A DNA stretch of 64,000 nucleotides, from positions 1 to 64,000 of the forward strand of contig CAJNYD010000357.1 in NCBI GenBank assembly GCA_905331295.1, written 5' to 3'. A model generated the notes under the pieces. It was not told the DNA's origin, searched no databases, and saw only the letters and a list, made by a program, of their open reading frames with translations. The position numbers were made by a program, and so were the translations under genes. The stretch comes from Rotaria socialis (taxonomy: Eukaryota). Positions 5,950 through 62,383 of the stretch are shown in pieces; position 1 is the stretch's first letter, and every line of letters begins with the position of its first letter.

Positions 5950-6178
5950 CCCCTGACGACTCCGTGGGGAGAATCCGGGATTTGCCTGGGGAGAATTGAT
6001 GAGATATCTAAATAAAAAAAAACTCGTTAATTTTTTAAATTTAAAAAAATTAAAAAGAATTTATTAAGTAATTAGATATTTCATCCATTTTCCCCAGACA
6101 ACTCCCCGGGGAATCCCCGCTAAACAGCGAAATTCCTAGGGACTATCTGGAGATTCTTCTAGGGGAAGTTGACTAGGG
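5950..6178. mobile_element. Degenerate MITE-like inverted-repeat element
   Basis: GC-rich island with internal inverted repeat TGCCTGGGGAGAATTGATGAGATATCTAA versus TTAGATATTTCATCCATTTTCCCCAGACA around an AT-rich spacer; CCC...GGG ends are weakly matched. Confidence 0.5.
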
Positions 6179-40355: not shown

Positions 40356-40928
40356 GATTTTGAGGAGTTAAATTAAAAAACTGCTTGTAAGCAGAATGGA
40401 ATTTTATCTTTGAATGTTCATATCTAAAATGATTAAATGACAAAAGAAAACACTTATCCATTACACGCTAAAGCTCGTCTATAATGATTAGTGCAAATCT
40501 ATTGTCACATAATACGGAGGTATTCAAACTATATAAACAGTTGTCCAATCTTTTTATTTATGTTGTTTTCATTCGTTGACCTGATTAAGTAAGGTTAAGA
40601 TAATCTACATACACTTGAAGCTACATACACGAAATCGCCATTGAACCGAATGACATACCTCCTCTGAATAATGAATGAAGCATTTACCAGAGGTCGCTAG
40701 TCATCGTCGTGCGTTTGAATATTTTTATTTCGCCGTAGACTATTTGATATATTAGAAACTTCGTTTTATATAGATTTGAGAAAAAATACAAATACTTATG
40801 CATCAAAATCTTCAAATAGCTTCTGCTTATGTTAGACTCTAATGAAGTTTGTTTGAAATTCATAATGCTAAATATTGTGCTAAGAGATCAATTGATGATA
40901 CAGATAATTTCTTTTTAATCAGATGCAT

Positions 40929-40996
40929 AAAAAATAATCACAAAAAGAAAAAATAATCGCAAAAAGAAAAAATAATCACAAAAAGAAAAATAATCA
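40929..40996. repeat. Short tandem repeat (~19-20 bp unit AAAAATAATCACAAAAAGA, ~3.5 copies) inside the element
   Basis: Directly visible tandem copies with one substitution. Confidence 0.85.
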
Positions 40997-42349
40997 ACAA
41001 GAAAAGTCTTACAAAAGCGTACAAAAATAACACAAATAAATGGTTGGAAAACACCAGAAAAGAAACATCTAGATTAAATTTCAAAAATAAGAAAACCCAG
41101 TGATGAAAGTTTGGGTTTCATATCAGAGTACAAAAAATAATATTTACGGTTCCATAATGAGTTATTAGATAAAAGATTTGATTGTAGAATAAATAGTTAC
41201 AATATTCATTGAGGAACAATTTTCAATGATCGAATTGATCCTACTATTAATTTCTATTTGAGAATCAATGAAAGAAAAAAATTTAGTTGACATAGAATTA
41301 ATTGTTATTTTACTTACATTAGTACATTTATTCAAGACACGTACTGGTATCGGTTGATTGAATTGAATCGAAGTAGATGTTGAAACTGCTATTGCCTAAA
41401 CAAAAGTAAAAACAATATTGTCATTCATTTGATGTTATGTTTCCAGTGATTGTTTCATTCCTCTACATGAGACTTTACTTCATACGAAAAACATGCATGA
41501 AATGAAAGTCTGATTTCAAATACTTTACATATTGGTATTATCTCTTTATAATGAACCAAAAAGTTATGTCCATCTTTGTGAATTACAAATAGGTTTATTG
41601 AATAAAACCGAAATGAAGTGTGTCTGTAATCTGCGATTTTTTTCATGTATAGCTAAAGTTGGTTATTTGTCTTTGGGATGGGATGTGATGGATCAAATGC
41701 GTCAGTAGTTAAAATTAGTGAAAGTATTTGTATCTTACACTGTATAGAAAACTTAGCACGAAGATATTTTTATTTTAGGAATAGTTGATATTTGATAATG
41801 TGTCAATTCAGTTAAATAATCTCATTCGAGGAGATAAATATGAAAATTTTCTGTTTAGCCAGAAAGCTTGCTTACAAAATTCAAAATAAATTAAAGAATA
41901 AACTTTTATTATTTGATGACGTTGAAACAGGTGTTTAAAAGAAAATAGAGATTCCTATATTATGAACAATTTATTCATTCAGTATTGCTAGAAGTTTACT
42001 GAGACGCTAAATTTTTCTCAAATCAGTAATATAAATTTCAAACAGTTATTATTTTTAAACTGTTTGTGTATATAAAATACAATATCTTTGACAAATTAAT
42101 CTAGGCAATTAAGAGCATGTCGCTAGATTGATGAATATGACAAATATAGGGAAGTTATCAATTATTCTTCCCTTGTATCTTTTGTAGTTTTTCGATGGAC
42201 GAAATACTTCTTTCATTTATCTCTTGTCTAAAGACTTGAAATTTCAAACCTGTTGAGAAATTGAAATTTTTGGTGTACATAGCAAACTCGCATTGTTCTC
42301 GTCGATGTTATTGGTATTTGTAGCAAGCTAAAAACACATGAAAAAGAAT

Positions 42350-45300
42350 TTATATATAGGCGATTGCATATAAAAAGTTTGTGTTCGAGGTTCGAATACG
42401 TTCAAGCATAATTAATCTACTATTAGCAAAAAGTTTTGCTAGTTTCTCACCATTACCAATTAATGTATTCATGCCACTAATTTTCCACCTTTGTTTGATT
42501 TTTGTTGCCAAAACCAATTTATTATTAACGTCAGAAACCACCGATAAGAAAGCTACTATGTCGTAGACACTTGACGATGCACATCCTATATACGAATCAT
42601 CCAAAAATGGATAAAAGCATACAGCAGGCGGAGGTTTAGATGACAAATTTGTTGAATTTTTAATATCATTAACTTTTAAAATTATAACCGGTGGACCTAA
42701 AACATTAATTTTTATATAAATTAGAAGATTCCGACTTACTAAATCTTTCATGCAGAATATATATTAGGAGACGCCCTTGAGTCTGACAAATGAAATGGAA
42801 AAGATATAGTATAGAGGACCCACCTCTCTCTAATCGTAATAAGACCGATGATTATGAATTAAAATTAGAAAGTATCCATGACAGTTCGAAAATGTAAATC
42901 TTTTCAGAAGCACAATAGAAAAATTCCTTTTTAATATAGATACAAAAATATATACTAGACAATTCCGTGCATTCTAATATATCAAATAATATCCAGCCGA
43001 GTTTATTTTTGATAGAATACGCTAAAAATAGTTAGTTCATAGTGTGAAGTTCATCTGTGTAATCACTTTTCTCAAGTAAAACCTAGCAAACTATACATTT
43101 TCTTACAATCAGAAATTTTGATTTGTCTCGACATCAACATAGAACATTTATCACATATATGATCAGATGCATTGTTAGCAAAATAATTTGCTAACTGTTG
43201 ATTAAAACGAAATTGATTTTCAACCATACTAATTTCAATATAACTTATGTTAAATCTTGTATTAACAGTATGCTTACAAGATGTACAACGATAATTTTTT
43301 TTAACCGATATTGAATAAGAAATGATCGGAAGAAGAATGTTATGAATAATAAACGACAGTTGTTCACTCGTATCGATTGGAACATTGACAGTTATGTTGA
43401 ATTGGGTGTTCAATAATTTGTTTAGTTCAGTGCTGGTTTTTTTAGGTGGCTTAAGACGATTACAGCCCGATATCCAGTTGTTAATGAAAGAAAGTATATC
43501 GACAAGTAAAGGCGTTTTCATCAGTGTTGGTCGATATGTTTCACGAACAAATTTAATTGATAGTAAAAGTCCAATCGATATATTAAGCCAATATGCAACA
43601 GACAGATGTGGTATAAGAAGAGCATCATTAATGTTTGATGAAGAAATAATTAAAGAATTTTTTAAATTATTCATGATTGATGTTTCTGGTGTTTTAGCAT
43701 AGTGTCCATGACCACGTCGATTAGATTGTCTCCACCGTTCTTGTACATTTTTTAATTGCTGAGAATTTGTTTCATTATCAGTATCTTGAAACATGGTAGC
43801 CATAAGTGATATTGAAAACTTCTCAACCATTTTCTTCATATCATTAACAAGAATTTCTAATATAACATCAGATCTACACCGAGTCTGTATTCCTATAAAA
43901 GAAATAAAATACATCTTATGATCAGTTTTTGATTTCAATATAAAACATTTATTACCAAGTTGTGTTCTCTTTACAATTGACATTCGTCTTTCTGATATTG
44001 CATTAGTACGTTGATTATGAGTAGATAGAAGTAAATTATCGAAGGCGCGAACAGTGGATGCACCGTGCCGTGATAGATTTCCTGAAATTATGAATTTTAT
44101 CATTAGGTTTCTATCAGCTAACAATTAAATATAATCACCAAGTAAAATATTTGACCAGATAGGAATCGTTGGAATGCACCGTTGATTGATATATGATAAC
44201 CATTGTCGAGTACCTTTCGATGCTTTGTCAGATGACGAAAAAGCACCATTGTTCTTTATACAAGTTGTTAAACATTCATTATAAATAGCTTGCAACTCTT
44301 GTTTGAACGGACTATCGGCTTTATTTAATTCTTCTTCTTCATCAATAATCTAGACAAATAAAGAATAAACTCTTGTAAACTATTCTTCGAAAAATATCTA
44401 CAGATTCCAAAGGACTTCTTAAAACTAAATAGTAACATCAGATAAATAAAAAGAGATTCACACTTAAGACTTTATAACTTCAAGTGAATTCAATGTTTCG
44501 AACAGATTCAAAACGTTTGTAAAGCTAGATATATGCAAGAATAATTTAGAAAAACTGCAGCTAAAGCATATCTATAAACTTTATGTAACTATACTTCGTT
44601 AAATAATAAATATGATAATAAAAGTCTCGAATATCAATCATTGCCATATGACAAGTATACCAATTTCTGTTTAGGTCTATGTTCTGAAAACTGTTCTATA
44701 TTTCAGTACATTTAACTACTCTATTTTTCTTCGGAAAAAAATTATATCACGATATTTGTGCTATTTACCGATTTATTAATATTTGATGAATTCAAGTGAG
44801 ACGTAGTCGATCTTTTTCTTTTGTTATTAGTTTTAATATTTTCATTTGTATTCATTGTATTATGATCATAATCATCAAGTTCATTATCATCATCGAATGC
44901 AAATGGATCATTGATATTCGTACGTATTTCTTTTGATTGATGGATTGCTCGTGATGAATTTGGATCATTTGTTATATTACTAATACGAGAAAGTAGTGTT
45001 GCATGATGTTGTTTGAAATTAATGTTATCATTTGAAGCATAGTTAAAAAAAACTTGACAAATTAAACGCCAATTATCTTTAATTTCTCGCCATGTACTTG
45101 TATTAACAAGTAGCGCGATTGCCCACATTGCAATCTCACGAACATCTTCAGGTAAATATTTATTAACACGTTTGCGCATATCCTACAACATTCAATAATC
45201 AGTAAAATAAAAATCTAATTAAAAAAAAAGAGTATTTTCTTACCAACATGAAATGAGATAAACATGCATGAATATTTGTTTTGGATAAGTCATTTCGAAT

Positions 45301-48300
45301 TGCTGCATTAGTAACAATACGATAAGCACGTGCAAGAAATGCTGAATAATTTTCATCATTCAAGCCATATAAAGCAGCTTGAAGAAAGACCTGTGCACGA
45401 TCCGACAAAATTATCGCTGGTCTAGGAAATGAATCTTTCTTGTGAGGAAATACCTGAACAAAATTTTAAAAAATTAAGAAAAACAAGAATGGAACATCAA
45501 GATATTAATAATGAATTTCCGTGGATATTTTTATGCCATAGCAACTGAGTGACTATATCTATCATATTCTAGTTCTAAAATTTTCAACAATAAAGTATTA
45601 TCAAAAATATTATCATTTCTAATCTATTATTCGAGATATCACATTCAACAATCTTTGAAGATGAAGAATGATTATCGATTATTTTTTTAACTTTCTCATT
45701 TTTAATACTTCTTATTCTATACTAATCTAGTATATATGCATCACTGATATGTCAATTGTTGTATCGACTCAACGACAATAGTAGTAGCTGATAGGATTAC
45801 AGAAAGTATCTATTTAAACACTAAAAAACAGTACATTTACCTTTCTGTAGCATTCTTTGAATGCTGATAACCATTGTTTAACAGTAAAAAGTGTTTGAGA
45901 TTCGGATAACATAAATGTTAATGGCACTAAGCTATCTTCATCGACTATATTCGGATGTGTTATCGTTAACTCATAATATAAACATTGTTTAGATGATGAG
46001 TTCTTAACAATACCACCAGTAGCATCCCATGAAAGAACAGATTCTGGACGATTTACAATAGAATCATATAATCTAATTGAGGCTTCAGTAAAAGCAACAA
46101 CACAAAATGGTCGAAATTGAACAATTTGAAGCGCACCTTTGATTATTCCGTCACTATTCATTTCTTGAGCTAATTTATCATGTAATTGTAAGATTCCTAA
46201 ACTAATGTCTGGTGATAGTAAAGATTCAGCATTTGCTTCAGCTTTTATTTTTTTAAATACTTTTTTCGACTTGCCAGTTGCATCATAATTAAAACCTTTT
46301 TTTTCATGTATTGTTCTTTTTTCCTCATATTGAGCATGAACGCGATAAACAGAACCACCAGCTTTAAATTTATCCATTATTGCTCGTCGTTGAGAACCAC
46401 GAATTGGACGACCAATTTTTTCATTGACACGATGACAAATTTTTCGATTTATTGCAATAACGAAGCAATAACCATTATTTAAAACATGAACTTTGCACTT
46501 GAAGTGGCAAACATGGCCACTACATTTTAGAGTGCATCTATGAAGAAGAGCCGTTGGCTGTGATATATTTTTTCCGAAATAACGTGTGCAGATGCACATA
46601 CCACAATATGCATTGTAGTGTTTTAAATGAGGTAAGAGTGTATTGAGATACTCAATATTCACCTTGTTAATTATTTTAGCATTTTGATCTTTTTTATAAC
46701 ATTCATCAGCATTTACATCATTAAGTGTTGTGGATGCGTGTCCACTTTTCGACTTCTTTTTCAGCAATGCTGATAAATCCGATGTTAAACCCAACATATT
46801 CATTTTTTTATCAGATTTTTTCTTTAATTCTTCTTGTCGATATTGATTCATTTTTAAAAGTTCAGTTTCATTTAAACGAAAGTGATGTGTTTGTGAAAGC
46901 GTTGCTTCAAATACTTGTTCAATTCGAACACCTGCTGCCACTGAAGCTAATTTCTTACAAGTTTCTAATAGAAAAATAAAAATTATTGTGTATATAATAT
47001 AGTACTTGAAGTTTTCTTGAAAATTGAGTAAGCTTATCAGTAGTTAACTAAGAGAGAAATTACAATCATATTGGCGAATGCGTTTATTTTTCATCATAGC
47101 GATATCTTTGTGTGGAAATTCACGTTATTGCTACATTTATTTTGGGATAATTATCGATCCAATTAAATAAGCTATTATTCAGGCTAATAAATAAACGTTG
47201 ATAAATGATATCCAAGGGGTTTATGCTTAGCTATTAATTATACTTCATATAGTAATTAAATGATTATCTCTAAGATATTAAGAGAGAGAGAGAGAGAGAG
47301 AGAGAGTAAAGAAGTTTGCTAACGGAATAGCCAAACCCAATTACTCATTGGTATATCTATAAAAAATTATTTTAAGACGAGTTAAGAATGGTGAGCAACA
47401 CGGAAATCATGATAATATATGCATTCATTTGACGTACCCATTCGTGTTTCTTCACCATCAGACACTTCAGCTATAGAATCATCACTCGATTCATTTGAAA
47501 TAAATGAAAGTTCTTTAGAAGATATTGATGGATGTAGTACTTTTAAAGTAGAAGAACAATGCAAATAATATAAATAAATTCAATAACATTGGACCATCAT
47601 TCATACCTTTATTTGATACATGATAAAAATTCTTTCGATTTTCTTCGATTCGATCAATTGAACATTGATTACCGATTGTTATACTACTTTCTGTTTGCCC
47701 AAGAATAGGTTCATTATTTAAAATGGTATTTTTTCTTGAGCTAACTACTGACATGGTATTTTTTAACTTTGATCGAACCTTATTTTGAAATTCTTCTACA
47801 ATAGAAAAAATAAACATAAATAAATTTCAACTGAAAAGAGCCCAACCATCCTCAAATGGTATCATTGTCATCATATCAATCAAAGAATTGTTCCTGGATA
47901 GCTGTTCGTTCAGTAATGTAATTGATGTATTTATAGGTGTTGAATGTGCTGGAACCTAAAAGAAACTATTTGATGGCCAGGCATATGGTAAAATTATATT
48001 CATACGGAAGAATTTAAAAAAGGAGAATTCAAAACGATGTTATTTTCTGGTGTTGAAGGCATTAATGTTTGTGGTATTTGTTGAAATGATTCATTCATTG
48101 GTATGGACGTAGGACATACTTTCGCATAAAATAGCATAAAAGCTTCTGGATGATTTAAAACTTCATTTGATGATACATGTTGACAGTGTACATCATCAAC
48201 TAGAAACCAACGGTTGCCAGATGACCGAATATACGAGTAATAGTGGCCACTATTAAGATTATCACCAATATGATTGATGACGGCGTACAATTTGTATAAA

Positions 48301-50058
48301 TTATTAGTTGATGAATTTATATTTTGACTTTTATCGTTTGCAGTAAATAAATCCGATGTCATATACGAAGTAACATTTAACAACTCATTATAATTTACTT
48401 TATGCAAAAGTTTGTCAATTGAATCAAATGTAGCAGTAAAACGTTTGAAATTGATAATTAATATTGGTGATAATTCATTAATAGTAATACGTTTATCAAG
48501 TGTTACAAATTTGTTACAATTACTACATTTAAAGTTATTTATTTCTTCTCGGTTAACGAAATGTGCAAGAGCATCCGTCAAATGGTTGTAATTATTTATT
48601 TCAATTAATAACATACTAGTAATTTCTTCTTTTTTAAAAGTGTACATACACGCCTGACATTTTCCAGATGATAGAAGTTTTATATTAAATATTTGATCAA
48701 TAATTGTCGGTTTCATAGGAAGAGTAGATGGTATTGATAAATGTGACGATAAACAACAATTAAAATGATCTAACAATGTAATCATAAATTCGCACACATC
48801 TTCTTGTTCTCCCACATTAAATATACGTGATATTAGATGTACATGAGTTCTGATGGAGTCGGCTGATGGAATAGTGACGCAACTCGATTCAGTAGATTTG
48901 TTTCTTGGTGGTGGATGAATTAACAAGATGATTTTTGTTAATTCACAGATAGAACAAAATTTTCTTTCACTTGATAATCTACCTAAAATTAAAAAATAAC
49001 TAAATTTTATAAATATGATTATTTATTTGAAACTGTATATATTGTATTTTGAGTTTCATTGAGATGCTTATTGAAAATTATTTCTTAGTAATAGATGGTA
49101 CTCACATGTATTTAAGTTATCAACTTGTTCAAATAACCATTCGGTCAATGGAGGTGTGCTTCCCAAACATTGTAAAGCTGCATTAATATAGCAGGTTTTA
49201 TTATCTTGGTTTCTTAAACCAATCATTCGGTTTCGTAACGAATTCCAGTTCATTGTTGGCTTATTACTAAAAACATTAGGATGCTTTGAATTAACAAGAA
49301 GACAATCAGAATTATTTTGCAGATCAGATGGTTTTTCTAATGGTGTTGTATCAAATATATCCCTTGGAAATTCATCAATAATACTTGTTATTCCTAAACA
49401 AAGCAAAACTAGAAATATATCAATAAAGTAGTTTTAGCTTGCTCTCACGTTTTTCCTGCGATTCAGCATTCAAAGTTAAAGACAAATTCTTATTTTGGTC
49501 ATTATTTTTATATTGCATACATTGTACATCAGTAAATAATTCCAATGGTGGTGTTGAATGTAGAATTTTTCGATAGAATACCATGGAGTCTAAGATGATC
49601 CTGCCATTGCTAGATATATAAGATTTCCAGACTTCTGGAATATCAATATCTTGAAAATATAATGAAGGATCTACTTCGTAATGAAGTAAACGACTAATAA
49701 ATACTAAATCTATGGTATTTGGTATGTATTTGATATAGCCCTCAGGATCGAGTTGGCTATGAGCTTCAAATAAATCATCAGTAAAAAGTAATAAACATTC
49801 TTCTACAAGTAAATTTGCTGCATCTCTATCGATTTTTTTCATTAAAGATAAAGTTGAAACAACACCACAAGGATGCTGTAAAAGTTGGCGACAGGCTTTT
49901 TTCAAGTGTAGCTCGTGGTCAGTTATAGTTCGTTGAGCACATGGTAAAAGGTTTTCGAGTTCTTTCATGTCTTCATCAGTAACACCAATATTTTCAGCAT
50001 TACGAATATTTTCGTTAGTTGATCGATCAGGACTAGAACATTCTGAACAAGCATCCAT
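42350..50058 (-). CDS. USP (peptidase C19) + MULE/NOF-type DDE transposase + inactive USP-like domain fusion protein, 13 exons, ~1830 aa
   Basis: In-phase GT-AG exons 50058-49449, 49393-49106, 48982-48006, 47955-47847, 47795-47607, 47539-47438, 46964-45841, 45453-45244, 45182-44769, 44349-44139, 44081-43956, 43892-43107, 42696-42350 (5493 nt). USP motifs GLRNQDNKTCYINAALQCL, EQEDVCEF, HIGDNLNSGHYYSY, WFLVDD. Transposase motifs LSWDATG, ILSDRAQ, ACLSH, WSNILLG, RTNAISE. Confidence 0.8.
47281..47306. repeat. (AG)n microsatellite in the intron joining the USP-side and transposase exons
   Basis: About 13 AG units. Confidence 0.95.
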
Positions 50059-53000
50059 TTAACAATAATCTAAAATGAACCGAAATAAAAATTTAATATC
50101 AATATAGACTATCACAGATGAATACATTCAAGTAGTTTAGTATACACAGCATGTAATATTTATTTTGTTCTTTTCAAGAAATATTAAAACAAACTTAGAT
50201 TACAAATATTGAAAAATTGCAATAACTATATATAGTCAGATACTCTACCTTTACACATGTCTCCTAATCTTATGAGCAAGCATGCTAATGATATTTTTTT
50301 TATTCAAGTAGTGTTTTCAACGTTTGTCTTAGATTCATAGTTGCAAAAGAATAATTAAGTCATTGTTCATACTAATCTGAAATTCATAAAGTTATCTTCG
50401 CGTAGCCTTTAATAACACAATCGTAGAAGAGTATTTTCCTATTGATGCTTTTAATCTGAAAATAATTTGTTAGAAATACTTTTCTAGTCGATATTGTTTA
50501 ATAAACGACTATTCTGATAGAGAATCAATATACTTATCAAAGAGATAATTGAATGTAATTATAACGTCGAGGATATTGTATTTAATAAATTCGTAGTAAA
50601 CTGCTGTATCAGTCAATATTGCAAGATAAGTTTCGGGTTCATATCTCTAAATAATTTCAGATTACCTTTTGTAAAAGTTAAATATGGCCTACAAAAACTT
50701 GTAGATATAAAAATAATGTCTTCACTAAGATCAAGATAGAATCCCCGATGAAAACATTCCGATAATGTGTTCATGACGCATGATATATTTTTATGTACGC
50801 GATATACGTCTGTCGTTATGGGTAACTAAAAGAAAAGTCCGAATGATCACGTGCACGTTCTGTTTACACTGGTTAAATCGAAATGAAGCGATTGTTTCAA
50901 TAAATGATAGACATGTAAATAAACCAAAACATATAACTTCACTACAAAAACTTGAATATCACAAATTTAGTTTTATTCATTATGAAAAAATTCAATGAAA
51001 GCATTTTATTAGCTATGCAATATTACTTACACCATATTAGGAGATTCTATATCAAGTGATGGAGTTCTCCCGTAGTAAATTCTTTCAATTTTTAGTAGAG
51101 CAATTGATTTATCTAGTTGTGTTATGGTTGAATAAGAATGAAGAGTACACGATCCCTTTTGTTTCGTTGTGTTCTGTTATATCATTCTGCAACAATCGAT
51201 ACTGTCAGATAATAGAACAGAGCATTATGCAATACAAATATAATCATTTTTATTTCGATCTAGTAGATTCTATAAAATGGCTAGTAAGCTATTTTTTTTA
51301 TTTCATCAGATATTCAATGAGCAGAAGTGTTAGCTTAAGGAATACTTAATTCATAGTCAACAAAAAAATCGTACTAAAACTGTACGTTGATATCCACGAA
51401 CATAATTGATGTTATATGAAGAAAAACGGCATATATGGAATATGTATGAAAACAAAACATGCCATTCTATGCAATTCATTATTAAATTTCATGCTAATCA
51501 CTGTTTATTGATTTATAAATTTAAATGTCCATGAGACTCAGCTCTTCAAATAAACAACGCGATGTCTTTTATTTTCAGTTGTTAATTGTTTTATTATTGT
51601 TTGAGTTTTGAATTTAAGTCAATTGAATATATCAAGCTAGTCATGGATGATCAAAACATTGCTTTATATATTTGCTAGGATGTATTTGCTTGATGTGAAG
51701 CAATTGATATGGTACAATAGATTCTGTCTTGCTGTTTCTTTGAATTTTCAAATGAAAAAGAAAGATAGAATAACATTTTCAGTTTTGCTGTACTCTGCAG
51801 TTATCTGTATTGCCTAAATAAAATTATTTTGTTCTAAGCTATTAATAATAGCTTCAGTGAAAACTATTTGTTTTTGAAAACATCTTTAACATGGTTGTAA
51901 TATTTCGTAGTCTAGAAATTAGTTGTTATTTCTATTGAGCGTAGTTAACAAAAAGAAGTATGATATATGTAAGCATGGCAGTTGGAGACAAAAGCTAGGC
52001 CTGTAACACAAAAGTTAATCAGAAGTATTCAAAATTGAAATATCATTGAAACAAAAAACGTATAAGTACATGAATCTCACAAGACATATGAATGTAAAAA
52101 CTTTCTTTTTATTTCTCTTGTTTGAATAATCAATCTGAATTTAGAAAAAAATGAAATTTAAGATAGTTATTTACTGATAATACTCCAATTTTGTTCTAGG
52201 ACTTGTTCAAAATATTATTTTATTTTATATGATACAATGATAAAAATCATTAATTAGTGTTCCAAGTCAAAAAACATCATCAAGTCAAAGTACAGATGCG
52301 CATTCAAAAATTGTTCTTTTGTCTCGCATCAGCTGATATTCTAATTACAAAATGGTCATGATAATCTAAAAACCCAATATCATATAATGTGTCTACATAT
52401 TAAATAGTAATAAGTTACAAAAAAATGTTAAAAAAGCATAATAGGNTTACATATATCATACTTCTTTTTGTTAACTACGCTCAATAGAAATAACAACTAA
52501 TTTCTAGACTACGAAATATTACAACCATGTTAAAAAAGCATAATAGGAAGGCACTTGTTGAGATACAAGGAGACAAGTCTACAGTAAATGTGTGTATTCG
52601 ATAAAAAATGTGTATGCGAGAGAAACAGAAACGAATATATATGTATATGTATCTAAGTCATACAGAAACAGAAAGAAAAAGCCCATGTGACATAGATGAA
52701 CAATTTAATCATATTTTATCAAAAAGTTTAGTCAATAGAATATGCCATACTTATTTGCATTCTGTTAGAGCTGTCAAATCTTAATTGTCAAATATTCAAT
52801 ACAAATGAGATAGAAATATTTCTATAATCGTATGCATCGTTGAGGTGCACAGTTGCCCTTGTGAAATAGAATAATTTGTTGGTAAAGTTACTCAAATCAA
52901 ATTTCATTTTCAGACAACAACATTCTGCCCAATTTTATTCTATTAGATAGCAACTTTCTCATTCATTTCATTTGTTCACAAAAAAAATACTTTCTAAGTT

Positions 53001-54562
53001 TAACTTTGATCTTACAAATGACCTACTCAATAAAAGAAATAAAAATTTGATATAAAGACATTCTAAATGTCGATTCAGCTACAACATGGTTTCTTATATG
53101 ACTGAAGAACTTCTCTGATCATCGAGCACATCTTACAAATGCAAGTTCACGTTGAATAGATGTGAAACACTCGTATCATTTCATCGTATACAGTTCAATC
53201 TTATTTTTAATTCAGCAGCTATAGTTACAGTCAACATTGACTTCGAATTGTAGATCCATCTTTTCGTCATATGACTATAATAGTATATTGCAGTAAAGAT
53301 TCCAAAAGCTAAATAAGGTACGAAACGTGTATCCAAGATATACGAAAATTTTCGGGGTACGGAGTATGATATATTTGACAGCTCTGTGTACACTGTTGTG
53401 ATCAACTAACTATTTTGTTCTCATCTAAGTTGTTTGAAAAGCCTGTTTAGAAGGTTTTGAAACTAAATGATTACATGTAAACAAGCGAGGTTATTGCGTT
53501 CCTTGAATACTCTTTAATGTAACATATAGATTTATGCTATTATATAAAACTCAATTTATCAATCTTGCTAATTTTACCAAAGATTTTCAACGCTAACACA
53601 GTTTCTATCATGACGAGTATCAATCTACAGTACATATAGTATGCAAATGAATACATTTAGGATAAAATTATATATATATATATATATACAAGACTTTTAC
53701 ATGTGCACATTAATTAATCCCACATTTTCAATGCTGCTTTTCAGGATGTATAATTTTTAATTTATTAGTAAATATGTTTTATAATTCTCTATACATTGGT
53801 TGATGTTCTTCGTGAATACTCCACATAATAATCCAAAATAACATTTACTATTCAAGAAATGATACCTAAAACAAAACTTAATATCCAATAGGGTATATTT
53901 CCAACGATTCAAAATATCTATTGAACTTTTATGAACTTAACGATATTTTCAGCATCCGTTATGCTAACGCAATAGTAGAGAGAGATATAACAACGTACAT
54001 TGTTAAAACAAAGTGAGTTTATTTGGGTTATTTGAAATAAATGTTCAAATTATCTTAAATTGCCTTTCGCCTGTTCGTGACTATCAAATAATCTTTATTT
54101 TTACTTTACTATTTGTTTCGTTAGAATTTTTGTGTGCTAAAATTATATTTTTGAACTGTGGATGATTAAAAGTCAAATGAAAGATATGCTATACCTTTCA
54201 CTTCAAATCAAAAGTATCATTAGCACCTAGAAAAAAAGACAAAATGATCAATTTTAGTTTAATCACAGGTATCATTCTTGTATAGCATCAATATAACTAC
54301 AATTATTTATATAGATTGTTGATTTTAAAATCTTTTTGTGAAAACTGCGTCACACAATATAAAATTCAGACACTTGTGTTAGGTTCACCTCATGTAGTAC
54401 ATTTGCACGAATATCATATCAATACGATGTAGTCGTCAAAAACAAAATGATTAATGGAAAGTATTAGGTATATCATGGAATGTAATCTGATTGGTGTAAA
54501 TAAGAAAGGATATGCTACATACACTATTGTATGTAGCGTGTGAATGTAGCTTATCTTAACCC

Positions 54563-54967
54563 ACAAGTGAACGTGAACATCGATATACACATGAAACTCA
54601 ACCTGTAGATGAATATAAACCGGAACACAAACCACAGCAATTATCAATGGAAGAACGCAAACGTATACATAACCGATCATGCACCTTAAAACAACGCAAA
54701 CGATTATATCGACAGGAAATCGTTTGTGAAAATACGGATGCTCGATTTACCACTACGAAAATAAAACAATTACTACGAGAACGAAATATTGAATTTTCCG
54801 CTATTAATCGATCTCAATCAAAATTGAATAAACGAACTTTATATATAGGAATAAAAAACATCAATCACATGCCGCGATACGAAATCCTAACCAAATATTT
54901 ATTCAGCACCGCCAATTATAATCGTTATTCAAGTGATCGTCATCATCGATCTAATTCTCGATATTGA
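54563..54967 (+). pseudogene. 5'-truncated basic ORF of unknown function abutting the right TIR
   Basis: The frame of ORF 54647-54967 (MEERKRIHNRSCTLKQRKRLYRQEIV...TLYIGIKN) stays open upstream (TSEREHRYTHETQPVDEYKPEHKPQQLS) to the TIR boundary. Confidence 0.45.
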
Positions 54968-56330: not shown

Positions 56331-57541
56331 CCCAGGTGACCAAAAGACTAGTAAAAAGACTAATCTTTTTTCTAGACAAGTCGGCCGTCCAGTCTAGTCT
56401 TTTTCTCAAAATGTCCTAGTACAGGACTAGTCTGAAATCTCGTATAGTCCATAGTGCCCGTCTGGACTATGAAAGTGACTGGAGTCATTCTATTTGTCAT
56501 GCGTAGTCTTTTTCGAAAAAAGTCTAGACATGCTGTACCATCCTGACGCCCGTCAAAAATATGATTCTAAATAAAAGTAAGAGCGTCTATGACGCTTTAC
56601 ATGACGAGTTGTGGTCTTATATAATGACGAGATCCTGACCAGTCTAAACTGAAATATTTTATGACTACAACTAGATTCGAACACACATACCAACTATTAC
56701 TTACCCATCGTTCAGACCATTGAGCCATTTGATCGAGAGATCAATTTATCAGTATTACTAGTCATTCTAAGATGTTTTAAAATACGAATTTTTTCTAAGT
56801 TTTATTCAATTTTTCATATGAATAAAAAATATTTTTTTATAAATTCCAAAATTATTCAGATGAAATTGAATAAAATAAATTGAAAACTGTGGTTATTTTA
56901 TCTCATGTTTTAGTCATTAATTTAGCAATTCACCAGGACAATTTATTCAACAATTTTTTTCCTTCTAATATTCATTTAGATAATTCAGAATTCGGACTGA
57001 CGATGTACTTAAAAAATAGAATAATCTTTACGAACATACAACGGTTTATATCAGCCTAGGAGCAGTCCTTCTAGCTACCATTAAAGGCATTTTCGGGTAG
57101 TGAGAATCAGTTTCCATCAAGTGATTTCTGCACGCATAGTATATGGAAGACGCCCATTTGCATTTTAGAATATATACATAGACATAAGGCTTACTGTATT
57201 ACGGACTGCCGTCAAGACGCCAGTCTGATTTTTAATAGTATTATAAGTGTCTCTAATGTTGTAACCTAACTTTCTTCTCCCTTTTTTACAATATTTTTCC
57301 CTTCTATGTGCTAGTCCAGGTGGGAGTAAATGAATAAACAGACCAGTCTAGACGGGTAAAAGGACAAACGGACTAGTCAGAACGATGCTCTGGGATAGCT
57401 TGGACCAGTCCAGACGGGTAAAAGGACAAACGGACTAGTCACAATAGATATGGAAGACGTATTAGACTAGACTTGACGGATATAGCAGACTTTTTGGACT
57501 AGTCATGTCGCCAGTCCTCCCTATTTTTTTGCTCACTTGGG
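56331..57541. mobile_element. Non-autonomous DNA transposon (~1.2 kb) with CCCAG-type TIRs and GACTAG-rich subterminal repeats
   Basis: Left CCCAGGTGACCAAAA versus reverse complement of right CCCAAGTGAGCAAAA (13/15); many GACTAG/CTAGTC motifs at both ends; a ~39-bp direct repeat at 57341-57379 and 57403-57441. Confidence 0.75.
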
Positions 57542-57869
57542 GAAGCGTATGTTATAGCAAAGCGTTTCTAATTCTCTTTGACGAAACCTATGTTATCTAT
57601 ATTGTTGAATGTTCTTTCTATTATGATTTACTTTGTTGTCGTTTCTCTTTAGTTTTTTTTATAACAAAGTATACGACTGATATATATCTGGATATTCAAT
57701 GGATGTTTTTATTCCAGTTGTTGCATACTGCGTTTTGAGCCTCTCTTGTGCTGATTCATTAACAACTTTCGTGCCTCTGAACGAGTCAATTAATACAGCT
57801 TAGTATATAAGAAGTTCAACAATAATTGATTATTTGAATTAATTTTTGGTTTATTCTTTTTTGTAAAAA

Positions 57870-60800
57870 ATGAAAGATCAAGAATTACCATCAGAATCGA
57901 CATCACGTCCAATTTTTCGCCAAAATCTCAATATAACAACTAGTTCAGCAAATATGCACACTCGAAATAGTTCTTCTTCAAAAGATCTTAATAAAATCGT
58001 TAAACTAACTTCAACAACAACAAAAAGAAATAATCCAAAAACAAAAAAAAACAATTTGGTTCACGAAAGAAAAGAACATATATTCAATCAACACCGAAAT
58101 CTAAAATACCAACAACAATCTTTGACAATTATAGTAATTAGTACTCATGACGATATGATTGGTGATCATGGTTCAACACCAGTACAAAAATCACGTTCAA
58201 ATAATTCTTCTACATGTCAAATTAACATCAATGTAGAAGAAAATTTAATTCATCTTGATGATCCTCTGGCAAGCGATGAAACAGATAACAATGAACCTAA
58301 TCCACCATCGAATGTCGTGCCAAAAACAACTACTAAAACCAAACAAGATGTATGGGAGTACTTTACGAAACAATATAATGGAGAAGTTAAATGTAATTTA
58401 TGTCCGAATTCGTCAAAAGTAATACATCTTTTTCTTTTATTAGACCTTAGATGTGACTATTCTAGAAAAATATAGGTTTCTTTCGAATAATTTAATTTTC
58501 CACAAGAATTGCCTACGGTGTGTTATTTTACTTATTGTTTTTACTGCTTTTTCTAGGCATTTCCAAAATCAAACCAATTATCGGATACAAACCTTCGTAG
58601 TCATCTCGGTCGAGCTCATAAATTTACAGATTTTCTTTATCCATCACAACGTCCAACGAAACAATTACCCGAACAAGAAACTCTATCTGTATCTGGTCAA
58701 AATAAAAAAGCGTTAGATACAGCCGCTATTCAAGCAATTATTGAAGACACACATGCATTCAATATTTTTCGTAAATCTGGAATGCAAAAGTTTCTGTCAT
58801 TGGCTACACCAGGTTATCGTGGTCCAAATCGAAAAACAGTTGTTAAACGTTTGAAATCTATGTACAAAGAACGACGATCAACAATTCGTAATAATTTATC
58901 ATCCATTTCGGATATATCATTATCAGTTGATATTTGGAAAAGTATCCGACAAGATCATTTCTTATGTTTATCTGCACATTATTATGATGATCATTATGAC
59001 GCTAATTCACATGTTATTTCATTTCGTCGTTTTCTTGGTACACATTATAGTGATCGAATAGAACAATTTATTAGTCATGAAATCGAAAAACTTAATATTG
59101 AAGCAAAAATACGTTCAATAACAACTGATAACGGAGCTGATATCCGATTAGCTGCACAAAATAAATAAAAGTTTGGAACAAGAATTTCATGTTTAATACA
59201 TGTTTTGAATTTAGTTGTACAAAATGGTATGTGGTTGTTCAAAATACCAAAGCGACAAACGTAAGCAATCTTTCTCTACAAGAAGAGGGTGACAGAATCC
59301 TTTGACAAACAAATAACTGTATGTTTACATTAGATGATTTTTTAATTGATAGACCAAAACAAAGTTATGCATGAATGAAGAATCCCCACTCTCAGGTTTT
59401 CTAGCAAGTTTTTAATTCTATTGCACATTATTAAAGGTTTTTCTCGTTTGAGCTATGTGGAACAAAATAGCATATGCTCAGATATATATGCAGTCAAAGA
59501 TTTGCTAGTTGACTCGTTAATTCTTTTTTATTTCTGGAATGTACTTAATTCTTTCAGGTTTAGTCAGCATAATCTAGCTGGCATGTGAGCTATTGAAAAG
59601 TCGAAGCGTAGAAATGTCTCTTTGGTATACTTTATTTAATGATCTAAGGCTAAATTGATAATGCTACAAATTTATTTGTTTCTTAAAAGTTCGTAAAAGG
59701 AGAAGTACACGATCAAATGATTAAACAATCATTTGATATTTATTCTATAAACATCTTCATTTATATCAAAGTCGATTGAAAATTGGTATCGATAGGACAT
59801 ACGGAAGATTGCTAAAATAAATGAAATTCGTATTGTGCAATACTATAGTCAACGCTATTTATTTTACAGTTAATTTATTCAAATATCTTCCGTTTTAATG
59901 TATTAAGGGCTTTTCAACTTTCATTGAAACAAAAAATGTCGAAAAATAAAAATATCAGCGCCGGTGGCGCTTAATTCTATTTCGACAGTCTTATTTCGAC
60001 CGAAGTTGAGAGAATTTTTTTATTTCTAACTGCTTAAAAACTCATGCAAATCAGTTGTCTTATATATAATTTTTATCTATAAGCAGGAACACTTGTGTTT
60101 TATTCTACTTTGTTTAGAAAGAATGAAATTATTGCTAAGCTGGTTCTATATTTTCTTGTCGAATATGTTTTAAAGTAGTTGAAAAGATAATTTTATCTCG
60201 CGTTTACTTAAACTCAAAATCGAGGAATAGCTTCTAACTGACTGAATGCATGTTAAAATTTAATTGTTGCTTCATATTTTTTCCATAAAATGCATTTTTG
60301 TTCTTTTCTTTTCAAATAGTTTAACATTATCTTCATCAGCAAATACCACTTCATCAACAATAACAATAACAAAATCAAATCGAACATCATCAAAAACAAA
60401 TACAATCAAATCAAATACAGCATCATCCTCATCCAATAATATTAAATCAAATTCAGCATTATCAGCATCAAGTACAAGCAAATATAATACAACAGCAACA
60501 GCACTTCCTGATTCATTCACTGAAGATGATGATGATGATTTTACAATAAATGATGATCAAGTTTTGGACGAAGTAAGTGATGATAACAAAAGTGATAATA
60601 TGAGTGAAGGTAGTGATATTGACAAATCATCTGATAATACATCAATAACAACATCATCATTATCAGATAATGAATCGAATTGGTCATCTCCAGAAAACAA
60701 TACTGATAATGATGAATTAAATGAACCATTATCATCAACAATTACAGAAGAAGAAGAATTTCTTAGTCGATCATTTGCTGAACCATCAATTCTATTAATC

Positions 60801-62383
60801 AAAGTCAATGTTATTCTTAAACGTGTTCGAAGACTTGTGGCAATGATACGAAATACAAGTGGATTGAATAGATATGTTATCAAAGAAATAAAATTACTAT
60901 TGGAAAATATAAATCGTCAACGAGAAGCTCAAAACAAAAAGAAGATTAACTTTAAACATTTTACATTGGATATGAAAATTAGATGGAATTCGTCTTTTAT
61001 AATGATATCACGTTTTGTATTATTTAGTCCTATCATTACTTCATTAACACATAATCCATCTAAAGAAATCAATTTGAAACCACATCAATACAGAAAATTA
61101 AAAAAACTGTCATTTACATCACTTGATTGGTCTATATTAACAGCACTTGAAAATGTTCTTGAACCATTTAATCATTCAACAAAAATTTTTTCAAGTCGTC
61201 GGCGACCAACTTTATCCATCAATCAATCTTTTATTCATGCTCTAAGAAATTTTTTAACACTAGCCGATGATGCACCATTAACAATCGAAAATTTATTAAA
61301 AAAACAACTATTGTTGAATCTCAATTTTTATTTTGATAAACATGTTAGTGATGAACAATGTAAAGCAATGTTGGTATGTATAAAAAAAAGAACGTGCTTT
61401 GAAGAAAGAAGATGAGAAACACTTTTGATTGTTGTCTACACATCGAAAAATGAATAGCATTTTGTTTCATTTATTATCAAGCACTTTTCCGACTTGCTTC
61501 TAGAAGATAAATTAGGCATTATAACTATTTAAATTGTCATCAAGTTTGCTGTTGTTTATCTGATTACATGTTTTTCTAAATTCGTCTTTTTCATTTCGTC
61601 TTCGGAAATAAAATCTATACAAGCTAAAAATTAGCTGTTATCATTCATCTTTTCATTTCCATGTATTATTAGTTCAAACGATTTCATCAGGTCTTCGGTG
61701 AGGGCTTTCCGTATCGAGAAATTAGAGTCATTAAGATTTTAAATCATAGTAGAAAAGCAATACTCTGTTCAAAAGAGAATTATGAAATATACAATAATGC
61801 TTCTTAACAATTATTTTCAATAAAAGTCATGCTTTTCTCATTTTGTGCTTCATTACAGATATCCTCGTTTCTTGATCCAACAACGTATCCATTTTTGAGT
61901 TGCAATGATAAAAAAGAAGCAGAAACCATCATCTGTAATGAAGCTAAACAACATTATAAAAAATTAAATTCTCAATCATTAACATCATCAAATCAATCAT
62001 CAATAACTAAACCATCAAATAAAGAACAACAAAGTAGTCAAGCAACGATATTGCAAAATTTTTTTTTAACTTGTGGTATTAAACTGCAAGCGACATCAAC
62101 TGCTTTTAAACCATCAACTATAAAAGAAGAAATTGCTCAATATGTTGCAACGGTTAATCTTTATCAAACTTTTAGCCAATACTGGTATGCAAATAAAGAT
62201 CGTTTACCTATTTTATCTTCATTTGTTCGTCAATACAACATCATATGTGCGACTTCCATTGATTGTGAGAGTTCCTTTAGTATTGCTGGCTTTATTCATC
62301 GTAAAAATAGATCTTCATTGGCACCGTCAACCTTGAGATATTCAATGATATTACGTGAGCAAGTCAAAAATGAACAAACATAA
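57870..62383 (+). pseudogene. hAT-superfamily (zf-BED, ZBED-like) transposase gene, 4 exons (57870-58418, 58557-59260, 60320-61373, 61859-62383), with one in-frame stop
   Basis: BED finger VWEYF...CNLC...NLRSHLGRAH; SLSVDIW, ITTDNGA, CLIHVLNLVV, IRWNS, and dimerisation domain W...LPILS...ATSIDCESSFSIAG...RSSL. TAA at 59166-59168 interrupts AAQNK*KFGTRISC. Confidence 0.88.

Follow-up and report, generated by a model that had tools for sequence, protein, structure and literature searches.

Can a transposase and a deubiquitinase be made as one protein in a bdelloid rotifer, and what would the second do for the first? The question is raised by a predicted gene of Rotaria socialis at 42350-50058 on the minus strand of the window, by which we mean the whole stretch of DNA analysed, the first 64,000 nucleotides of contig CAJNYD010000357.1 (assembly GCA_905331295.1). 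An earlier note on this DNA had read the gene as a transposase joined in frame to an apparently active ubiquitin-specific protease (USP). We find that a fused protein is very probably produced, that the gene belongs to a transposon of the Mutator superfamily, and that a second, dead USP at its C terminus points to a longer history of such fusions. Exons, protein domains and element ends below lie on the minus strand unless another strand is given.

The window is AT-rich (about 29% GC) and its introns are short. Thirteen exons (50058-49449, 49393-49106, 48982-48006, 47955-47847, 47795-47607, 47539-47438, 46964-45841, 45453-45244, 45182-44769, 44349-44139, 44081-43956, 43892-43107 and 42696-42350) and 12 GT-AG introns, of which intron 5 has a weak AAG acceptor, join into the in-phase frame of 5,493 nt, or 1,830 amino acids, that had been claimed, with no internal stop. 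The joined product agrees letter for letter with the public NCBI model P0026 of R. socialis, P0027 deviates at two sites, and the transposase exon was 100% identical to R. socialis proteins in a homologue search. All motifs named beforehand are found in the product: C271, QED at 359, H546 and D562 on the USP side, and WDATG (D1072), SDRAQ (D1151), CLSH (1197-1200) and TNAISE (E1442) on the transposase side. The reading frame by itself proves little, because stop-free GT-AG chains are easily found in such DNA; the spliced path offered as evidence of fusion does exist, but it is conservation that carries the support. Our automatic splice-chain search called too many exons, and the gene models were then curated by hand.

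The USP side is joined to the transposase by intron 6 (46965-47437, 473 nt, phase 1). Its position and phase are identical in two complete elements from metagenome contigs, L001, where it has 61 nt, and L004, where it has 280 nt. From the USP onwards, each of the 11 introns agrees in position and phase among the three copies; L001 has one additional intron of 47 nt. The three linker exons before the junction (47438-48005; 109, 189 and 102 nt) are near neutral in protein evolution and still retain the frame. The ratio of nonsynonymous to synonymous substitution (dN/dS) is 0.86-0.99 there, with dS about 1 and an identity of 21-26%, and the exon lengths (109/112/67, 189/195/219 and 102/105/99 nt) differ by multiples of three, with zero stops. 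When neutral evolution of the linker was simulated 5,000 times per setting, the frame stayed open 39 times at 0.25 substitutions per site, 6 times at 0.5 and twice at 1.0. The 46964 acceptor has the strongest pyrimidine tract among 11 in-frame candidates, and the first Met of exon 7 comes only after a conserved segment, residues 760-796. On the far side, E1442 and most of the C-terminal domain lie inside a single open genomic frame of 350 codons; therefore the fusion of the transposase to that domain needs no splicing assumption.

Protein models of other bdelloids have the same order. Among 22 long proteins homologous to the transposase exon, 15, belonging to seven species of Rotaria and Adineta, have an N-terminal UCH domain. 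Of the other seven, one carries a C-terminal UCH and six have none above the cut-off, two of these being partial models of the subfamily to which the window gene belongs. The reciprocal search with the USP returned the same proteins in 10 of 11 matches, and a third homologue search, confined to proteins of 1,933-5,000 amino acids, gave five bdelloid matches. The USP tree (a quick one with long branches) and the transposase tree have their main groups in common, indicating that the two domains have long been inherited together.

Several observations weigh against a fused product. Alternative stop-free splice chains were also found in the window, and the models of L001 and L004 were hand-curated with the window model as guide. 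Other public models split the same DNA, P0034 being the USP only and P0024 and P0031 the transposase from M797; the motif was found in 12 models, 8 of which share this Met, and therefore a shorter isoform is possible. No RNA across the junction was found. The R. socialis gene models were built with BRAKER and RNA-seq (Nowell 2021, PMC7943196), an origin that does not show read cover at 47438^46964. In a same-species RNA run (contigs), neighbouring host genes were spliced, cover of XRN1 was patchy and low, and the element appeared as four short pieces of low identity, which we counted neither way. The window copy is also internally deleted. Its stop at 42350 is not the natural end of the family: about 200 residues of the 99.9% identical P0002 and P0041 are absent from it, and three terminal exons (42327-42250, 41395-41318 and 41253-41209; 41209-42327 overall), matched at 100% by tblastn to the tail of P0002, are stranded downstream of this deletion of about 200 codons. 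The deleted block has a weak half-USP resemblance (E 5e-4 and 4e-3, set of 7 sequences). We nevertheless regard production of a fused USP-transposase isoform as very probable, and the claim of one fused reading frame is supported by conserved introns and models, not by RNA.

The USP domain (residues about 255-588; 48117-49241) is matched by Pfam UCH in both of its exons, at E 1.8e-5 and 4e-34. Its catalytic codons are at 49193-49191 (Cys), 48245-48243 (His) and 48197-48195 (Asp). Residues 249-590 align with the catalytic domain of human USP36 (PDB 8bs3, 8bs9) through the Cys box, QED, the finger CxxC pairs, KRF, GHY and the Asp, and the triad, QED box and finger pairs reported for this locus are thus intact; unlike human USP36, the bdelloid element holds the catalytic domain only, inside a transposase protein. 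Among solved structures, USP36 is the best relative (123 bits, E 1e-34) and leads the next family, Ubp8 with 79 bits, by 44 bits. The noted resemblance to USP17/36/42 holds to the extent that USP36 is the closest solved relative, and the domain may belong to that clade. A tally of 20 rows gave the Cys in 13 and the His in 19, and a substituted Cys in none; the seven rows that have no Cys-box stretch comprise three 5'-partial and four exon-skipping models. With dN/dS at 0.35-0.44, the check on selection suggests purifying selection on this domain, which is likely to be active as a deubiquitinase (DUB). Two points lie on the other side: dS is near saturation, which makes the ratios rough, and all 7 models of one Rotaria sordida subfamily (P0006) lack the Cys-box exon, which is missing from P0005, P0007 and P0010 too; this may be skipping by the gene models or a real loss. 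The structure model of the USP half (predicted local distance difference test, pLDDT, 40) was too poor for use. Ahead of the USP, residues 28-170 (49549-49977) form a conserved region with no fold assigned (41% identity and dN/dS 0.55 against L004); it had no match in Pfam or the ESM Atlas, and tblastn found no N-terminal exons in the 5' region of L001/L002.

The transposase core spans 43990-46026, with D1072 at 46026-46024, D1151 at 45402-45400, the CxxH at 45264-45253 and E1442 at 43992-43990. In 25 aligned rows the first Asp is found in 25, the second in 23 and the Glu in 19, every miss being a gap or a truncation, and the CxxH follows the second Asp in 23. The CxxH motif also occurs in hAT, P and Kolobok transposases and alone is not diagnostic of Mutator. 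A model of P0001 matched ISCth4, an IS256/Mutator-type transposase, over residues 254-725 in a VIA fold search (Z 6.8, root-mean-square deviation, rmsd, 6.4, 224 aligned). The check for a DDE fold thus found one, but in a low-confidence model (pLDDT 56), and the match is a middling one that counts against us together with Pfam MULE (Mutator-like element; PF10551), which was unmatched in the window open reading frames (ORFs) and the bdelloid models; the expected Pfam result was therefore obtained for UCH and not for MULE. The N-terminal part of the model, a predicted WRKY/GCM1-type DNA-binding domain (DBD; residues about 780-942; 46414-46902), matched AFT2 (Z 5.8) and WRKY33 (Z 5.4), scores too low to stand out against the background of common matches. 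The top rows in the ESM Atlas (0.94 and 0.93) were MULE-bearing or unnamed clusters, and the 10 best family matches all agreed. The core has a dN/dS of 0.18-0.29, with dS near saturation. From the DDE residues, the fold and Atlas matches, the terminal inverted repeats (TIRs) and the 9-bp target site duplication (TSD) of a relative, membership of the Mutator superfamily, as the earlier note had it, is well supported.

The gene is a part of a larger element. It reaches well past the coordinates 42350-50058 given earlier: from the TIR pair and the alignment to relatives, the element runs from 40593 to 54561 (13,969 bp), with one N gap at 52446 inside. Its 5' TIR (54528-54561), detected by inverted-repeat search and three-way alignment, starts GGTTAAGATAA and repeats a CTACA-type submotif; the conserved 5' end reaches about 95 bp, across which 79% match the end of L001. 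The 3' TIR (40593-40629) agrees with it at 17 of the first 18 bases. The 18-base TIR end occurs twice in the window, a count that 0 of 100 shuffles reached. A scan of metagenomes gave 31 related loci from 100 pattern matches, two of them distinct complete elements with the same order of USP and transposase; 40 pattern matches in viral contigs yielded 0 confirmed relatives. One of the two complete elements, a single insertion on the two contigs L001 and L002, has 12,111 bp, a perfect 17-bp TIR and a perfect 9/9 TSD; the other, L004, has 10,414 bp and a TSD of 6/9. In both, the USP is located upstream of the transposase and the ends align with those of the window element. Because the relative has a perfect 9-bp target duplication, we regard the element as a mobile Mutator-superfamily transposon, with two imperfect TSDs against this: the 9-bp flanks of the window copy agree at 5 of 9 positions, and those of L004 at 6 of 9. 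The window copy is therefore old or rearranged, or one of its flanks has been lost.

A 135-codon ORF on the plus strand (54560-54967) starts at the 5' boundary of the element, with no continuation at the other flank and no Pfam match above the cut-off; it may be a truncated piece of another element, which could explain the missing TSD. The host neighbours of the three delimited elements are unrelated: the window element adjoins XRN1, whose ATG is 237 bp from the TIR, whereas L002 has a VPS9-domain gene at about 190 bp and L004 has a JAB/MPN gene at 86 bp. Each insertion is just upstream of a host start codon, at most about 250 bp away, and this is consistent with the tendency of MULEs to insert in or near genes (Dupeyron 2019, PMC6446971). 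Copies of R. socialis that are at least 99.8% identical differ in internal deletions and in their 3' neighbour; P0041 and P0043 are without most of the USP, and the tail of P0030 is not in the window. The species has at least three subfamilies (100%, 67% and 36% identity). In four models (P0050, P0004, P0072 and P0030) the gene predictor ran on into adjacent host sequence: a cytochrome P450, an RRM protein, a C2-domain-like start and an unknown tail. These are further non-syntenic neighbours.

Two other readings of the ends were rejected. Kolobok elements have a TTAA TSD; in each of the three elements the GGTTAA belongs to the conserved TIR, and the 9-bp TSD of L001 lies outside it. An 88-bp perfect inverted repeat (51885-52534) is not a TIR of the element. 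It abuts the N gap at 52446 and is flanked on both sides by a 20-base direct repeat; probably the assembly is faulty here, or the repeat is a small inversion polymorphism inside the 5' region of the element. Three motifs are shared by the three elements (window 54561-54467 and 40593-40700): CCAATCA lies about 68 bp in from the 5' end, whereas GCCAT and AGRGGKCGCT belong to the 3' end. They presumably resemble CCAAT-box, YY1 and CTCF sites. The 5' region of L001/L002 also holds a palindromic insertion of about 480 bp (L002 5908-6390; 83% self-complementary).

The history of the protein can be traced from its C terminus. The last 290 residues were modelled as a USP fold (Foldseek E 2e-8; VIA Z 10.3, rmsd 8.8, 209 aligned), and in the pseudo-USP delimited there (residues about 1545-1828; 42359-43620) the catalytic Cys and His are gone, by alignment to the intact USP of P0022. 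Both residues are missing in 17 of 17 rows of the bdelloid clade that span the site, and present in P0022. Its dN/dS of 0.28-0.34, again with dS near saturation, is that of a domain still constrained, and going by the model it is a pseudo-enzyme that retains the fold. A profile search of 1.84 billion representatives found a large family of relatives, with 2,086 clusters at E<=0.001. Of the 150 matches listed, we scanned 40 of the longer ones for domains and found UCH in 20 (C-terminal to the transposase in 19), Ulp1/C48 in 11 and PHD in 10. In the 13 C-terminal USPs examined, the Cys was kept in all 13 and GHY in 12. Some relatives almost fill their contigs (P0130, 1,711 residues on 5,884 bp), and one relative is from a sea cucumber.

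The best score of the pseudo-USP outside its own group is to the intact C-terminal USP of the bdelloid P0022 (E 1e-8). In comparison, the N-terminal USP reaches 123 bits with human USP36 but no more than 33.5 bits with the C-terminal USPs of the family; because it is far closer to USP36, we take the two USPs to be of separate origin. We infer from the sequences an ancestral protein of the form (PHD)-DBD-DDE-USP-Ulp1. In one bdelloid branch, the triad of the C-terminal USP would have been lost together with Ulp1, and a USP36/42-like catalytic domain would have been acquired from the host at the N terminus. The USP trees, quick and with long branches, give no order of loss versus gain. What sets this element apart is that a newly captured USP appears to have taken the place of the ancestral one, which is dead. 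The overall interpretation of the earlier note was thus partly supported; it had overlooked the TIRs and the internal deletion, had not recognised the C terminus as a dead USP, and did not mention the large ancestral family, which has a C-terminal USP and Ulp1.

The relatives look Rehavkus-like in their PHD and 9-bp TSD. Rehavkus has a 9-bp TSD, TIRs of 26-400 bp, a PHD finger and a 3' minisatellite (Dupeyron 2019, PMC6446971 Table 1), and Mutator transposases with Ulp1 and PHD are on record (Bao 2010, PMC2836005). The bdelloid element resembles Rehavkus/MuDR in its single ORF, DDE residues with CxxH, TIRs and 9-bp TSD (in L001), and distant relatives add PHD and Ulp1. It differs, in a comparison by description only, in having neither PHD nor Ulp1 and in carrying the N-terminal USP36-like domain and the dead C-terminal USP; a Pfam scan gave no PHD in the window ORFs or the bdelloid models, and the homologue searches turned up no named Rehavkus or NOF sequence. 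As to a minisatellite before the 3' TIR, the window has a short 19-bp tandem repeat in its 3' subterminal region (40916-40990), and the 3' region of L001 is repetitive. A distant, GCM-domain branch of MuDR is MuDRF, with one protein, a 9-bp TSD and fungal and protist hosts (Cantu 2011, PMC3164196).

The earlier note was not aware of a described fusion of a C19 USP to a DDE transposase. One is already in print: the Trichomonas vaginalis protein XP_001314237.1 has transposase_11 (PF01609) and Peptidase C19 together (Bao 2010, PMC2836005), sharing DDE and C19 USP in one protein with the element but belonging to a different transposase family; it is mentioned there in one line, and the available text gives neither an element structure nor results on selection or activity. 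Helentrons (HLE2) carry UCH, OTU, Ulp1 or VTD, and their UCH was stably captured (HELIANO, PMC11417382); they share transposon-borne deubiquitinases with our element but are rolling-circle elements, and their UCH ORF is separate from RepHel. OTU-MULE fusions have also been reported (Babu 2006, PMC1702500). With precedents for C19-DDE in Trichomonas and for UCH in Helentrons, the novelty is lower than had been claimed. For Mutator elements, USP is unlisted for all 50 MULE groups and Rehavkus in Table 1 of PMC6446971; the words protease, peptidase and ubiquitin are absent from the available text of that paper and of a 2026 arthropod MULE survey (PMC13359780), the available text of the MuDRF paper (PMC3164196) had 0 matches for protease or ubiquitin, and a term search of the accessible parts of PMC6431247, bioRxiv 2021.09.26.461848 and PMC3169594 gave nothing relevant. 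A paper on a Mutator-USP fusion was not found in the literature searched; Repbase, subscription papers and the supplements of PMC6446971 and PMC7943196 lay outside the search and could list the architecture.

What the USP does for the transposase is a further question. We suggest that it would act in cis, within the same polypeptide, stripping ubiquitin off the transposase and its complex, which might thereby escape degradation. We lean towards such protection, by a modest degree only, because different transposons have filled this slot with unrelated classes of protease, and because the USP is carried on the transposase polypeptide itself. Helitron-encoded VTD domains are active DUBs and have been proposed as protectors of transposition proteins (Erven 2022, PMC9741609). 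It weighs on the other side that none of our results identifies the substrate, so that the in-cis target is a proposal, one we favour slightly. We rank it first, followed by action on chromatin, separate genes, domestication or a passenger, and polyprotein processing.

The fusion may be real and the USP, tethered by the DBD, may instead remove ubiquitin from H2B/H2A (or from repair factors such as PCNA) at element ends or targets, opening the site or steering repair. The closest solved relatives, USP36 and then Ubp8, are histone H2B DUBs, all three delimited elements adjoin host gene starts, and PHD fingers occur in 10 of the 40 relatives scanned. A role in repair pathways has been proposed for transposon proteases (Bao 2010, PMC2836005). 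However, the captured part is the catalytic domain only, and the divergent USP, Ulp1, OTU and VTD domains in the same slot are easier to explain by a general role than by a single histone mark. Moreover, the USP36/scrawny/Ubp10 group removes ubiquitin from H2B mainly in service of silencing; nothing here backs the anti-silencing through H2B that had been suggested, and we hold action on chromatin to be possible and rather unlikely. Its boldest form, on which we would place slightly less weight, is that the Rehavkus-like family (about 2,000 clusters) needs a fused DUB and that, once the C-terminal USP had died in one bdelloid branch, the element was re-armed with a host USP36 domain; the DBD would bring this domain to element ends and gene promoters, where it would clear ubiquitin from histones. 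If true, it would be a sequence-targeted, transposon-encoded histone DUB.

It is less probable still that the USP is a separate gene, with transcripts that stop in intron 6 and a transposase starting at M758 or M797. Split public models exist, intron 6 is long and AT-rich, and the UCH of Helentrons is in separate ORFs (PMC11417382). However, three elements share the phase-1 donor and acceptor, and in one of them the intron is just 61 nt; segment 760-796, which forms strands of the predicted DBD, lies ahead of the first Met of exon 7; M758 is in no other model examined; and transposase and USP proteins of relatives such as P0130 almost fill their contigs.

Little credence is due to a domesticated host gene or to a USP that is an inert passenger. 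The window copy is without a clean TSD, near-identical proteins are in several assemblies, and some subfamily models are without the Cys-box exon. These points are outweighed by the intact TIRs, the perfect TSD in a relative, the non-syntenic neighbours and the at least three R. socialis subfamilies, as well as by the USP dN/dS of about 0.4 and the retained triad. USPs cleave after the C-terminal Gly-Gly of ubiquitin; the product has two GG dipeptides, both within the transposase, and no ubiquitin-like Pfam match. That the protease cleaves a polyprotein made by the element itself, as suggested for the OTU-MULE fusions of Medicago (Babu 2006, PMC1702500), is thus the least credible reading of all.

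Transposon-borne Ulp1, OTU, VTD and UCH domains have been known for years, and their role in the literature, as far as it was available, is a proposed one. The bdelloid family offers a natural experiment, with an intact ancestral USP, a branch in which it is dead, and a second, probably host-derived USP under purifying selection. Deubiquitinase activity is likely to be needed for the movement of these elements and not incidental, because a lost USP appears to have been replaced by a host-derived one kept under purifying selection. The system is also compact and testable, as the USP36-like domain can be assayed alone and the complete element has defined ends. Besides, bdelloid USP36 counts are probably inflated by transposons, because several transposon proteins of this family carry the UniRef label 'Ubiquitin carboxyl-terminal hydrolase 36'.

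Some other features were observed nearby. On the plus strand of the window, several ORF pieces at 57867-62383 belong to a hAT-family transposase gene (Dimer_Tnp_hAT, E 1.4e-9), and a repeat-rich region at about 56350-57500 may be the left end of this hAT element. Further palindromic repeats like those of miniature inverted-repeat transposable elements lie at 514-774, 2612-2836 and 5977-6106. Among the host genes downstream in L004 (11990-17983) are a cpYpsA SLOG protein (Pfam E 6e-51) and long ORFs that resemble sialidase and glycoside hydrolase by eye, for which horizontal acquisition is possible.

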